This document shows positions 193 to 2,817 of a stretch of DNA of 2,817 nucleotides, piece by piece. Made by a program: the position numbers and the translations under genes. The stretch's first letter is position 1. Every line of letters begins with the position of its first letter. Origin of the DNA: a virus (taxonomy: Duplodnaviria > Heunggongvirae > Uroviricota > Caudoviricetes). Under the pieces are notes generated by a model that searched no databases, was not told the origin of the DNA, and saw nothing but the letters and a program-made list of their open reading frames with translations. The stretch lies in IMG/VR virus record IMGVR_UViG_2529292981_000044, one strand, 5' to 3'.

Positions 193-588
193 ATGGCGAA
201 ACCTTTTACACACGAACAGCGTGAAGAACTGAAGGCCCGAATTATCGGGCTGGTACGCAAAAATGAACGCATGACGATATCACAACTGGAGAGAGCGACG
301 GGAGCAGGCTGGCATTCAGTCAGACGTTGCCTTGTGGATGTACTGGCTTGTGGCGATTTATACATGCCCGGTAAATACGGTGTTTTTACATCAGAACAGG
401 TGTATCGCGTATGGCGTAAGGCAGCGGAGAAAACAACCGACCAGACATTGATTCGAAAGTTACCAGACGGAGAAATACGCCGCTACGACAGACAACAGAA
501 CATAATCTGTGGCGAGTGCCGGAAGAGTGAAGTTATGCTGCGTGTACTGGCGTTCTATCAGGGCAATTTTCAGGAGGCGGTATTGTGA
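193..588 (+). CDS. Hypothetical small protein, 131 aa; N-terminal region resembles a winged-helix DNA-binding domain, C-terminal region carries a CGEC (CxxC) motif
   Basis: ATG at 193 preceded by GGAGG (183-187) at 5-nt spacing. Stop TGA 586-588 overlaps the GTG of the next ORF (GTGA). The segment REELKARIIGLVRKNERMTISQLERATGAGWHSVRRCLVDVLACGDLY has the helix / turn / recognition-helix / Gly-wing pattern of small winged-helix regulators; this is pattern recognition, not a search result. Confidence 0.7.
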   Translation: MAKPFTHEQREELKARIIGLVRKNERMTISQLERATGAGWHSVRRCLVDVLACGDLYMPGKYGVFTSEQVYRVWRKAAEKTTDQTLIRKLPDGEIRRYDRQQNIICGECRKSEVMLRVLAFYQGNFQEAVL

Positions 589-1001
589 GTGAATTAGCTA
601 TCAGGCTTCAATTGTCGCTGGCATTCACATCAAAGGAGAAGAGCATGGAAATAAAACCAGAAGATGAGTTAAGCAATATCGTTTTATTTCCGGTAAAAGA
701 GGATGACCCACGTAATCAGGTTAATTTTCTTTATGAGCCATCGGAAAGAGCATATTGTCATCACGCCTCTGTTCGGGTTGACGAAAAAGAGCGTCAGGTC
801 CGCTGTAAAATCTGCGGTGCAGTTGTGGAGCCATTTGACTGGATGCTCTCTGTGGCGAAAAGAGAAACCAGACTGGCAGATGATGTAAGGATCTTGCGCC
901 AGGAGGAACGGGAAAGGCGGAGAAATATAGAAAAGCTAATTCAGATTGAGCGTAACGTGAAAGCGCGGATACGCAGGGTGACAAAATCCAGAACTGAATA
1001 A
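585..1001 (+). CDS. Hypothetical protein, 138 aa from GTG 585 (or 118 aa from ATG 645); Cys/His cluster (C-H-H ... C-x2-C) followed by a basic, Arg/Glu-rich predicted coiled-coil tail
   Basis: Long ORF in the frame of the track. Two candidate starts: GTG 585 with AGGAGG (572-577) 7 nt upstream and a 4-nt overlap with the upstream stop, or ATG 645 with AAGGAG (633-638) 6 nt upstream. The motif YCHHASVRV...RCKICG suggests a zinc-ribbon-like element; the C-terminus RILRQEERERRRNIEKLIQIERNVKARIRR is heptad-like and basic. Stop TAA 999-1001. Confidence 0.65.
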   Translation: MSELAIRLQLSLAFTSKEKSMEIKPEDELSNIVLFPVKEDDPRNQVNFLYEPSERAYCHHASVRVDEKERQVRCKICGAVVEPFDWMLSVAKRETRLADDVRILRQEERERRRNIEKLIQIERNVKARIRRVTKSRTE

Positions 1002-1049: not shown

Positions 1050-1262
1050 ATGTCAAACGCACAGAAAGTTATTAACGCTGAAAAATATAACGAGTGGGTG
1101 AAAAAGTTCTCAGAGCAGATTTTTAAAATTACTGGCGACGAGAATGCGGCAAAAAATGAATTAGAGCCGTGGACACCTGAAGGTGTCGACCCAAATTATT
1201 GCTGGTGGGATGTTGATCCAGTTGATGCTGCAAATGAAGCTATGAGTTATCACAACGATTAA
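1050..1262 (+). CDS. Hypothetical small acidic protein, 70 aa, with a Trp-rich acidic C-terminal half
   Basis: ATG 1050 with GGAGG (1038-1042) at 7-nt spacing; stop TAA 1260-1262. About 14 Asp/Glu versus 6 Lys/Arg, with the tail EPWTPEGVDPNYCWWDVDPVDAANEAMSYHND. Same strand as its neighbours. No family recognised. Confidence 0.6.
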   Translation: MSNAQKVINAEKYNEWVKKFSEQIFKITGDENAAKNELEPWTPEGVDPNYCWWDVDPVDAANEAMSYHND

Positions 1263-1272
1263 TGTCAGGAGG

Positions 1273-1297: not shown

Positions 1298-1669
1298 GTG
1301 ACTGAATTAACCAAAGAGAAATTAATCGAAGAAGCCAAATTAAAAATAGCGATTGCGAAATGCTACCCCAATTCAGGGATGGCACGGGTAGAGGGCGAGT
1401 TATTCAAAATTGCACTGGCATCGCTGGAAGCAGAACCGATAGCGTGGGAATGCGGTGAAAACATAATCCTGTTTAACCCTGACACAGTTGAAGCATACGC
1501 AAAACGTGCGGAAATATCACCTAAACCACTATTCTCCGCGCCGCCAGCGCTGGTAGTGCCTGATAAGTTGCCGCGTGAATACAGAAACGGTTGGCCTCTT
1601 GCGTATAGTGATTATGCTGAAGGCTGGAACGACTGCCGCGAAGCCATGCTTCAGGGAGATAAATCATGA
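1298..1669 (+). CDS. Hypothetical prophage protein, 123 aa; resembles (from memory) the N-terminal portion of Ea22-like / DUF551-associated lambdoid accessory proteins
   Basis: The frame opens after TGA 1292-1294; the first start is GTG 1298, with the next in-frame ATG at 1379 (Met28). Stop TGA 1667-1669 overlaps the next ATG (ATGA). The motifs PIAWECGENIIL, PLFSAPPALVVPD and AEGWNDCREAMLQG resemble the conserved 'VAW ... APPAPVVPD ... GYNxCRxAML' stretch I associate with Ea22-like phage proteins; unverified. Confidence 0.6.
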   Translation: MTELTKEKLIEEAKLKIAIAKCYPNSGMARVEGELFKIALASLEAEPIAWECGENIILFNPDTVEAYAKRAEISPKPLFSAPPALVVPDKLPREYRNGWPLAYSDYAEGWNDCREAMLQGDKS

Positions 1670-2016
1670 TTAATCGTATCAAGCTGGAGCACATCCTCGA
1701 ATATGCCAGGCAGCAGAGGCATATTGGTCAGCATTGTAAAATTCCACCAGGAGATATGGTTGAAATCATGGAGATTGCCATGCGCAAGGCTGGCAACTCT
1801 CCGGTAACTCCGGATGGTTGGATAAGCTGTAGTGAGCGAATGCCGGAGAAATACGATTTCGATATCTGGGTATTCTCTCCATCCAGAGGTGTTCTTGACG
1901 GGCTACAGTGGGATGGCTCGATGTTTACTGATGATGAATATCAGTTCGTTATTCATGACGCCACGCATTGGATGAGAAAAGTATATCCAGCAGCACCGCA
2001 GCAGGATGGTGAATGA
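1666..2016 (+). CDS. Hypothetical prophage protein, 116 aa, with a DUF551-like C-terminal region
   Basis: ATG 1666 with AGGGAGA (1653-1659) 6 nt upstream, ATGA overlap with the upstream gene; stop TGA 2014-2016. The segment DGWISCSERMPEKYDFDIWVF...QWDG matches my recollection of the DUF551 signature (W-I-S-x-x-D/E-R-L/M-P-E followed by hydrophobic strands); family call from memory. Confidence 0.65.
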   Translation: MINRIKLEHILEYARQQRHIGQHCKIPPGDMVEIMEIAMRKAGNSPVTPDGWISCSERMPEKYDFDIWVFSPSRGVLDGLQWDGSMFTDDEYQFVIHDATHWMRKVYPAAPQQDGE

Positions 2017-2102
2017 TGCCGCCAGTTAAAGTTGTGATTATCACTTTGGTGATGATAGTGATTGCGAGAATCATGTCTGGTGAAATTGTGTGGATATGGT
2101 AA
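2013..2102 (+). CDS. Unannotated 29-codon hydrophobic small ORF (MMPPVKVVIITLVMIVIARIMSGEIVWIW); candidate leader peptide or small membrane/toxin-like peptide
   Basis: ATG-ATG at 2013-2018 overlaps the upstream stop (ATGA at 2013-2016), with AGGA (2003-2006) 6 nt upstream; in-frame to TAA 2100-2102. 13 of 29 residues are Val/Ile and only 1 is Leu. Below the apparent length cutoff of the ORF track. Coding status uncertain because the same bases form GTGAT repeats. Confidence 0.3.
   Translation: MMPPVKVVIITLVMIVIARIMSGEIVWIW
2034..2062. repeat. Cluster of GTGAT pentamers including a GTGAT-t-ATCAC palindrome; possible protein-binding site array
   Basis: GTGAT at 2034-2038, its inverted copy ATCAC at 2040-2044 (palindrome centred on T2039), and direct copies at 2049-2053 and 2058-2062; related GGTGA at 2008-2012 and 2079-2083. 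Read directly from the sequence. Confidence 0.3.
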
Positions 2103-2160: not shown

Positions 2161-2165
2161 ATCTG

Positions 2166-2190
2166 AACTCGCTACGGCGAGTTTTGTTTT
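2166..2190 (+). terminator. Intrinsic terminator, second of the tandem pair, abutting the next gene's RBS
   Basis: Perfect 7-bp stem AACTCGC (2166-2172) / loop TACG / GCGAGTT (2177-2183), followed by TTTTGTTTT (2182-2190). GGAG of the downstream gene begins at 2193. Confidence 0.6.
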
Positions 2191-2203: not shown

Positions 2204-2548
2204 ATGTCAGATTTGGCTATGAAGGTTTTGAAATGGCAATCAACTGGCGATGTCGGCATCAGTAGCGCAACTCTTGCCTCAATCGCATGTGGCCTGAAAA
2301 AGAATATCTATGGTCATGGCTTCGGTGCTCCACATGACGCAGCCGATTTCAGACGATGCGTTGCACTTGTTGAGCAGATTCCAGAAATCAGAGATTCATT
2401 CGACAAGGTTGCAAAGCGCGTTCCGGCATTCAAAGGAATCCTCAACGAATGGGATTCCCTCGTTGCTCTGTTGAAGTCTGAAATGAAGATACACGGAAAC
2501 AAAGCACCAGAGACTTACAGAAGAATCAGCGAGCTACGCAAGGACTAA
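2204..2548 (+). CDS. Hypothetical protein, 114 aa, unknown function; terminator-insulated cargo (moron-like) gene
   Basis: ATG 2204 with GGAG (2193-2196) at 7-nt spacing; stop TAA 2546-2548. Preceded by tandem terminators and followed by hairpins and a U-tract. Translation MSDLAMKVLKWQSTGDVGISSATLASIACGLKKNIYGHGFGAPHDAADFRRC... matches no family I recognise. Confidence 0.7.
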   Translation: MSDLAMKVLKWQSTGDVGISSATLASIACGLKKNIYGHGFGAPHDAADFRRCVALVEQIPEIRDSFDKVAKRVPAFKGILNEWDSLVALLKSEMKIHGNKAPETYRRISELRKD

Positions 2549-2584: not shown

Positions 2585-2610
2585 GAGCCGCTATATGGCG
2601 GTTTCTTTTT
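2585..2610 (+). terminator. Probable intrinsic terminator downstream of the 114-aa gene, preceded by a second hairpin
   Basis: Stem CCGC (2588-2591) / GCGG (2598-2601), extendable by A-U and G-U pairs, running into TTTCTTTTT (2602-2610). A separate 6-bp hairpin GCCTCA (2550-2555) / TGAGGC (2563-2568) lies just upstream without a U-tract. Weaker than the 2133-2190 pair. Confidence 0.45.
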
Positions 2611-2625
2611 GCCTGGAGAATTAAG

Positions 2626-2817
2626 ATGACCGATACCAGCCTGATTCCTGAGAAAGAAGTGATGAACAAGCTCGGTGTTTCATCACGTCAGACAATCTGG
2701 AACTATACCAAACGGCACGGATTTCCGAAGCCAGTCAGAACCCACCCCAAATCATACCTTCGTGAAGCTGTTGAAGGGTGGATTCTTAACGGTGGCGTTA
2801 ATCAGAAATGCTCCTGA
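2626..2817 (+). CDS. AlpA/Xis-family excisionase-like helix-turn-helix protein, 63 aa (prophage CP4-57 AlpA-type regulator / excisionase family)
   Basis: ATG 2626 with GGAGA (2615-2619) at 6-nt spacing; stop TGA 2815-2817 is exactly the last triplet of the window. The segment EVMNKLGVSSRQTIWNYTKRHGFPKPVRTHPKSYLREAVEGWI has the layout of small phage excisionase/AlpA proteins (helix, Gly turn, recognition helix, then FPKP-type wing, then W-containing C-terminus). Family call from memory. Confidence 0.75.
   Translation: MTDTSLIPEKEVMNKLGVSSRQTIWNYTKRHGFPKPVRTHPKSYLREAVEGWILNGGVNQKCS

Follow-up and report, generated by a model that had tools for sequence, protein, structure and literature searches.

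Two overlapping open reading frames (ORFs), here called ORF1 and ORF2, are found in a 2,817-nucleotide stretch of DNA (the window) from the IMG/VR virus record IMGVR_UViG_2529292981_000044 (Caudoviricetes). The genes of the window all lie on the + strand, and the features discussed below are listed in Table 1. The original prediction, which was made from the sequence alone, compared the two ORFs to an Ea22-like N-terminal part and a DUF551-like C-terminal part of what is often a single polypeptide. It offered three explanations for their lying in different frames: an ordinary translationally coupled gene pair, a gene split by a frameshift or an assembly indel, or a gene fission. Both ORFs are present at the predicted coordinates, with the lengths and start codons given in Table 1.

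ORF2 scores 40.6 bits against Pfam DUF551 (gathering cut-off 22; E = 4.9e-10; profile positions 1-62 of 68), and the predicted signature WISCSERMPE is read verbatim in the window. In an alignment of 64 sequences, W52, S56, M59, P60, and W102 are invariant and H101 is nearly so. By its score and by its W-x3-S-x2-MP start and HW tail, ORF2 is a member of DUF551. The profile phrog_924 also matches ORF2 (9.6e-43), and PHROG 24004 matches its N-terminal 56 amino acids (aa) at 4.2e-45. ORF1 is identical in sequence to WP_000137941.1, named "hypothetical protein" in RefSeq. It is a member of PHROG 5117, whose profile (phrog_5117) is matched over its full length (E = 2.6e-50; aa 1-122 on profile positions 1-125 of 125). 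Such profile matches are far beyond chance, and both ORFs are clearly coding. In the AlphaFold2 model of ORF1 (predicted local distance difference test score, pLDDT, 78.8), a helical hairpin (residues 6-44) is followed by a small alpha/beta core and a C-terminal helix (residues 102-118). In that of ORF2 (pLDDT 75.5), a head of 43 residues is predicted as two helices. Sequence searches of PDB with ORF1 and ORF2 returned nothing, no fold match was obtained either, and PADLOC gave no defence-system match.

Table 1. Features of the 2,817-nucleotide window (positions in the window; aa, amino acids; SD, Shine-Dalgarno sequence)
Feature	Position	Strand	Remarks
DUF977 / Ren-like protein	193-588	+	
Zinc-ribbon protein	585-1001	+	138 aa
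70-aa protein	1050-1262	+	
ORF1	1298-1669	+	123 aa, GTG start; PHROG 5117, unnamed phage family
Variable N-terminal module of ORF1	1298-1406	+	aa 1-36; the sbcB-prophage copy is homologous only from 1407
439-bp segment common to both parents	1407-1845	+	>=99.5% identity; spans the ORF1/ORF2 junction
Left conserved joint	1622-1654	+	codons GWNDCREAMLQ; homology to fused L022/L026 stops at 1654
SD GGGAG	1654-1658	+	within ORF1 codons, 7 nt upstream of the ORF2 ATG
Split-type connector cassette	1655-1793	+	139 bp; replaces the 68-bp Ser/Thr/Asn-rich linker of fused genes
TAA in the ORF2 reading frame	1660-1662	+	one codon before the ORF2 ATG; from three-frame translation
ATGA start/stop overlap of ORF1 and ORF2	1666-1669	+	
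ORF2	1666-2016	+	116 aa, ATG start; DUF551 protein; identical to RefSeq WP_000610373.1
Right conserved joint	1794-1851	+	codons GNSPVTPDGWISCSERMPE; DNA homology to fused genes resumes, 97-98%
Pfam DUF551 (PF04448) match	1816-1977	+	ORF2 aa 51-104; core from SERMP to THWM hypervariable
Small hydrophobic ORF	2013-2102	+	29 aa, MMPPVKVVIITLVMIVIARIMSGEIVWIW; second ATGA overlap, on the ORF2 stop
Two tandem terminator-like hairpins with T-runs	2133-2154 and 2165-2184	+	close the ORF1-ORF2 unit
114-aa protein	2204-2548	+	
Third terminator-like hairpin with T-run	2585-2604	+	after the 114-aa gene
AlpA/Xis-like helix-turn-helix protein	2626-2817	+	

The last four nucleotides of ORF1 are the first four of ORF2 (ATGA), as predicted. 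The two start codons are 368 nucleotides (nt) apart (1666-1298), which places ORF2 in the -1 (+2) frame relative to ORF1. The GGGAG inside ORF1 lies within the range of 5-9 nt set for the SD of a coupled pair, so that overlap and SD together give the layout of such a pair. A site scan found no promoter-like or terminator-like site separating ORF1 from ORF2; one weak terminator-like match is located inside ORF2.

The search with the ORF1 protein also returned single proteins that carry DUF551. These fused relatives include P0003 and P0004 (~90% identity to ORF1), P0013-P0020, P0067, and others, with identities ranging from 73 to 90%. They are 205-215 aa long and bear out the original statement that such regions can be found within a single polypeptide. 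Fused proteins read …EGWNDCREAMLQ-SGSFRENKDSSTNNFRKISETST-NSPVTPDGWISCSERMP…. When the window is aligned by blastn with the fused genes L022 and L026, positions 1299-1654 match at 93% and positions 1794-1851 at 97-98%, with nothing between. Between these flanks lie 139 bp in the window and an unrelated 68 bp in the fused genes, and the difference of 71 bp explains the change of frame. The 139-bp cassette encodes the ORF1 tail GDKS, the stop codon, the SD, the ORF2 ATG, and the head of ORF2 (aa 1-43, MINRIKLEHILEYARQQ…). The linker peptide of the fused proteins (SGSFRENK…ETST) is found in none of the three frames of 1597-1860.

The ratio of nonsynonymous to synonymous substitution rates (dN/dS) for ORF2 codons 1-60, from a small sample of three diverged copies, is 0.26-0.31 in frame vs 0.5-2.0 in the other frames, pointing to purifying selection on the cassette in the ORF2 frame. 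Among the 120 best ORF2 relatives, the head (MINRxKLEHILE) is N-terminal in 59 clusters and follows a 12-aa alternative-start extension in two more. The possibility that the MINR head is an internal part of a read-through fusion was rejected, these two being the only clusters in which it does not begin at residue 1.

The two joints bordering the cassette are conserved. At the left joint, residues W110, N111, C113, R114, A116, M117, and L118 of ORF1 are invariant or nearly so. At the right joint, many different N-terminal modules are joined to DUF551. Ead_Ea22 coiled coils, a dATP/dGTP pyrophosphohydrolase domain, and other N-terminal modules are likewise seen in fusion with a DUF551 core identical to that of ORF2, and the join is always at the …NSPVTPDGWISCSERMP site. 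The right joint looks like a general recombination joint.

The same stretch of ~55 nt (1794-1851, encoding GNSPVTPDGWISCSERMP) makes up most of the partial matches when the junction is used as a query, which matches 2,489 of 5,426 complete Escherichia coli genomes. It occurs in up to eight places per genome and in 384 places on plasmids, many of these records being ~92-112 kb in length. The genes in which it sits are annotated as DUF551, ead/Ea22-like, or dATP/dGTP pyrophosphohydrolase.

The two-gene form is widely conserved. Five independent loci, with L001, L002, L004, and L012 among them, have an identical junction (…CAGGGAGATAAATCATGATTAAT…), and positions 1597-1851 of the window are 100% identical in independent finished genomes. 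In L003 the junction is kept at ~91% DNA identity downstream of a true Ead_Ea22 gene. L028, at 82% aa identity, retains the two-gene layout, with the upstream stop codon TAA directly abutting the ATG (TAATG, not ATGA). GGGAG is identical in L001, L002, L003, L004, and L012 and is kept in L028. The TAATG variant came from a scan of one genome per species, which gave only six loci, too few for a cross-species census. The most diverged junction match, PigCaeca_1 (H76), is a decayed locus annotated as pseudogenes and was left out.

For every annotated complete genome inspected (O157:H7 TR01, O145 RM9467, strain 2014C-3057, and O157:H7 E32511), RefSeq gives two coding sequences that overlap by 4 nt. 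The upstream gene is annotated as "hypothetical" or "ead/Ea22-like" and the downstream one as "DUF551 domain-containing protein". In all eight contexts shown, which represent at least two prophage backbones, a DUF551 gene overlaps the end of the exact ORF1 by 4 nt. Upstream of the exact ORF2 lies a 118-aa ORF1-like gene (4-nt overlap), a 44-aa truncated version of it, or no called gene. An ORF1-type gene and a DUF551 gene overlap by 4 nt in all contexts inspected, apart from lineages with a truncated or uncalled upstream gene. The assembly collection has the exact ORF1 protein in 3,653 of its blocks and the exact ORF2 protein in 3,797, the latter in the sbcB-integrated Stx2c-type (Stx, Shiga toxin) prophage.

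Split and fused architectures are both established and common; homologues are not uniformly encoded as two genes. The split junction is present in 548 of the 5,426 complete E. coli genomes (at least 80% coverage) and the linker-type junction of fused genes in 333. When the 120 best ORF1 relatives (clusters at 90% identity) are classified, 26 are of the split type, ending no more than 8 aa from the GWN motif, and 18 are fused. Six have other tails after the motif, and the remaining 70 lack it (5 of the 70 carry DUF551). Among the 150 best representatives at 50% identity, 28 are stand-alone proteins and at least 17 are fused to DUF551 by Pfam.

Taken with the cassette, these observations make it very probable that ORF1 and ORF2 are two real, separately translated genes and represent one of two common, stable architectures between which connector cassettes are exchanged. 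Of the three options offered originally, the ordinary translationally coupled pair is the one that stands. Its junction is identical in independent complete genomes with GGGAG 7 nt before the ATG, and it is kept downstream of different upstream genes as well as in diverged relatives. The two ORFs would share a transcript and yield two polypeptides. The last codons of ORF1 contain both the ribosome-binding site of the DUF551 gene and its start codon (GGGAG-N7-ATGA), the usual layout for translational coupling, and such coupling probably operates here. In the fused form, the ORF1-like N-terminal part is joined to DUF551 by a Ser/Thr/Asn-rich linker of 23-32 aa. In the split form, the cassette instead ends the upstream protein (…AMLQ-GDKS-stop) and starts a new one with the two-helix head. 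The two forms probably interconvert by homologous recombination at the left-hand joint GWNxCRxAML and the right-hand joint NSPVTPDGWISCSERMP, presumably through the process to which ea22, the exo-xis region, and the nin region also owe their mosaic structure. Gene fission describes this history only loosely: one form has two genes where the other has one, but connector cassettes appear to be exchanged at conserved joints and no single frame has been split.

The window itself is a hybrid of two prophage regions. Positions 1-1845 correspond at 99.8% to the nin region of an O157:H7 prophage (in E32511, DUF1627-DUF977-…-ORF1-DUF551-hok). Positions 1407-2817 correspond to the Stx2c-type sbcB prophage in its int-proximal region (100% in TR01, 99.9% in phage 1717). 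Because the window has the sbcB-type allele at both sites (1555 and 1797) that differ within the 439-bp segment common to the two parents, the crossover is placed at 1407-1555. The two parents exist in single genomes; in E32511, for example, they lie on one strand at 2.95 Mb and 2.01 Mb. Coverage of the window reaches 80% in no complete E. coli genome, and a search for the bridging pattern found no copy of the join in IMG/VR or in Joint Genome Institute (JGI) metagenome contigs. The window is either a real inter-prophage recombinant or a contig chimeric across the 439-bp repeat.

The exact combination of ORF1 and ORF2 was not found in the databases searched, where WP_000137941.1 and WP_000610373.1 stand only beside other partners (DUF551 proteins of 120 and 114 aa, and an ORF1-like protein of 118 aa, respectively). 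It is quite possible, though less likely than not, that the pair is an artefact of a chimeric join and that this combination never existed in a cell; the two matching parents, both present in E32511, and the lack of any bridging record are in its favour. Genuine recombination between prophages across the repeat would, however, be an equally good source of the hybrid. Moreover, in each parent an ORF1-type gene and a DUF551 gene share the ATGA overlap and the same junction, so the junction is unaffected by the origin of the hybrid, which takes only its ORF1 N-terminal module from one parent and its DUF551 C-terminal core from the other. A wider proposal is that the GWNxCRxAML and NSPVTPDGWISCSERMP joints serve as recombination linkers, both between fused and split-but-coupled forms of a DUF551 module in lambdoid prophages and between different regions or prophages of one genome, and that the window is a real recombinant of the O157:H7 nin and Stx2c int-proximal regions with its crossover at 1407-1555. 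We consider this proposal tentative and, as a whole, rather unlikely.

That a frameshift broke up what had been one ORF1-DUF551 gene, or that the gene only seems split because of a sequencing or assembly indel near 1640-1670, is very improbable. The fused homologues with their high identity to ORF1 and the different frames of the two ORFs would agree with such an event. An indel, however, does not account for homology that stops at 1654 and resumes at 1794 with unrelated DNA of a different length between, nor for a linker peptide that has left no trace in any frame. Identity of the junction in independent finished genomes, the occurrence of each exact protein in more than 3,600 collection blocks, and the dN/dS ratios across the cassette also argue against it. 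As far as the sequence can tell, the frameshift-split or indel option is already refuted.

Programmed -1 frameshifting could in principle add an ORF1-ORF2 fusion beside the separate products. Because the in-frame TAA shortly before the ATG closes the ORF2 frame, any such shift is limited to 1663-1669, a window of two codons. No slippery heptamer (X XXY YYZ) is found at the junction, as had been stated, the RNA fold of 1630-1700 is not unusual when compared with shuffled sequences (z-score 0.26), and Rfam has nothing across the window; the junction has neither the heptamer nor the stimulatory structure of a programmed -1 frameshift site. Although ORF2 is in the -1 frame and the fused homologues show that the covalent combination is functional, this or any other recoding is most unlikely, since the TAA leaves the last sense codon, TCA at 1664-1666, as the only shift point, the signals are absent, and in L028 the TAA directly before the ATG leaves no overlap to shift in.

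The closest known systems to the two-gene form are the prophage pairs of E. coli O157:H7 and O145, in which WP_000137941.1 is the ORF1 protein, and the sbcB-integrated Stx2c-type prophage (phages 1717 and 2851), in which WP_000610373.1 is the ORF2 protein. Both have the same ATGA overlap and SD, and the pair belongs to the accessory genes of lambdoid (Shiga-toxin-type) E. coli prophages. The fused proteins P0004 and P0020 (215 aa, "DUF551 domain-containing protein") resemble the window in their N-terminal family, GWNxCRxAML, the NSPVTPDGWISCSERMP joint, and the DUF551 C-terminus. They differ in being encoded in one frame, with a linker of 23-32 aa and without the stop, SD, start, and 43-aa head (MINRIKLEHILE…).

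DUF551 also occurs as a portable C-terminal module behind an Ead_Ea22 coiled coil in Ea22_V2 of the Stx phages 933W and phi24B, where it is reported as a portable domain of mosaic ea22 genes (PMC10834534). Ea22-DUF551 fusions, e.g., P0132 and P0134, use the same right joint as ORF2 (…SGNSPVTPDGWISCSERMP). The likeness does not extend to ORF1. In the Pfam scan, lambda Ea22 (1.1e-28) and the mosaic Ea22-like protein of L003 (4.1e-24) match Ead_Ea22 (PF13935), but ORF1 does not at E <= 1, and no Pfam hit is reported for it. The NCBIfam search likewise gave no matches, ORF1 included. By BLASTP, ORF1 has no similarity to lambda Ea22 (E = 5.1) or to the 315-aa Ea22 of a Stx phage (E = 1.6); similarity to Ea22_V3 is likewise lacking. 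The only element that ORF1 has in common with the L003 protein annotated as Ea22 is a 15-aa C-terminal tail, GWNxCRxAMLxGDKS, which lies outside the Ead_Ea22 domain of that protein (aa 9-85). Membership of ORF1 in Ead/Ea22 was rejected both by the hidden Markov model match and by pairwise similarity to characterised Ea22 proteins. The motifs quoted for it, PLFSAPPALVVPD and EGWNDCREAMLQG, are indeed verbatim in the window; VAW is not, the window reading IAW, and VAW is found in homologues such as P0111. ORF1 should not carry the label "Ea22-like", and the pro-lysogenic phenotype was demonstrated with ea22, not with the ORF1-ORF2 pair.

Another DUF551 protein, by the literature, is YfdS of the K-12 cryptic prophage CPS-53. 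Like ORF2 it is of similar size (120 aa) and overlaps an upstream gene (yfdR, by 10 nt). Unlike ORF2 it has a different N-terminal module, and pairwise similarity between the two is undetectable (BLASTP E = 25). It is reported that YfdS affects H2O2 sensitivity and takes part in the effect of yfdQRS on replication initiation (PMC4776307). Transfer of these phenotypes to ORF2 was rejected for lack of detectable similarity.

ORF1 varies among relatives. Its N-terminal module is swapped for other sequences in P0013, P0016, P0067, and L001. In phages 1717 and 2851, G1447A relative to the window changes codon W50 from TGG to TGA (W50*). Annotations there give the ORF1-like gene as separate N- and C-terminal halves or call it a pseudogene, and the downstream DUF551 gene is intact. 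Because these phages keep DUF551 despite the upstream stop, the ORF1-DUF551 partnership is not obligatory. Cluster P0001 has W50R at the same codon. Stx2a_WGPS4 is listed together with phages 1717 and 2851 for the variant at position 1447.

Several records of the ORF1 and DUF551 families (P0104, P0107, P0176, P0198, and phage cdtI, H147) are named "valyl-tRNA synthetase", evidently a propagated misannotation. Upstream of ORF1, a strong SD-like AGGAGG is found at 1267-1272 (+), 25 nt before the GTG. A 6-bp all-GC hairpin with a GAAA tetraloop (1273-1288) lies between the two, and a 56-nt fold of the region 1267-1298 has -18 kcal/mol with a z-score of -2.9. The hairpin could form a structure-bridged ribosome-binding site for ORF1, or it could be an element of RNA stability or processing.

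Downstream of ORF2, the 29-aa ORF, strongly hydrophobic, is called as a gene in L015, L020, and L021. It may be the third gene of the coupled run, encoding a small membrane peptide co-translated with the pair. One phage record has "lipoprotein" among the features under the 2013-2102 region. The three terminator-like hairpins suggest that this early-operon stretch is divided into short transcription units unless antiterminated. In the upstream part of the window, the DUF977/Ren-like gene and the zinc-ribbon ORF have a 4-nt overlap of their own (GTGA, 585-588). RefSeq and most gene callers start the zinc-ribbon gene at an internal ATG at 645 (118 aa).

The outcome is routine lambdoid mosaicism, an ordinary finding. 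Annotation should show two genes here, without a pseudogene flag, and the result has little significance beyond annotation. The 439-bp repeat shared by two prophage regions of one O157:H7 genome is a plausible site of misassembly or of prophage-mediated rearrangement, and is relevant to the short-read assembly of O157:H7 genomes. In place of the peptide linker, the tail …GDKS and the head MINRIKLEHILE… of the cassette could dock non-covalently as a co-adapted pair. Since fused versions exist, the two products may, by Rosetta-stone logic, act together as accessory, non-essential modulators of phage development. The coexistence of fused and split forms is thus a modest hint that the ORF1 family and DUF551 cooperate, one that could guide experiments with the poorly understood accessory genes that Shiga-toxin phages carry in their exo-xis and nin regions.
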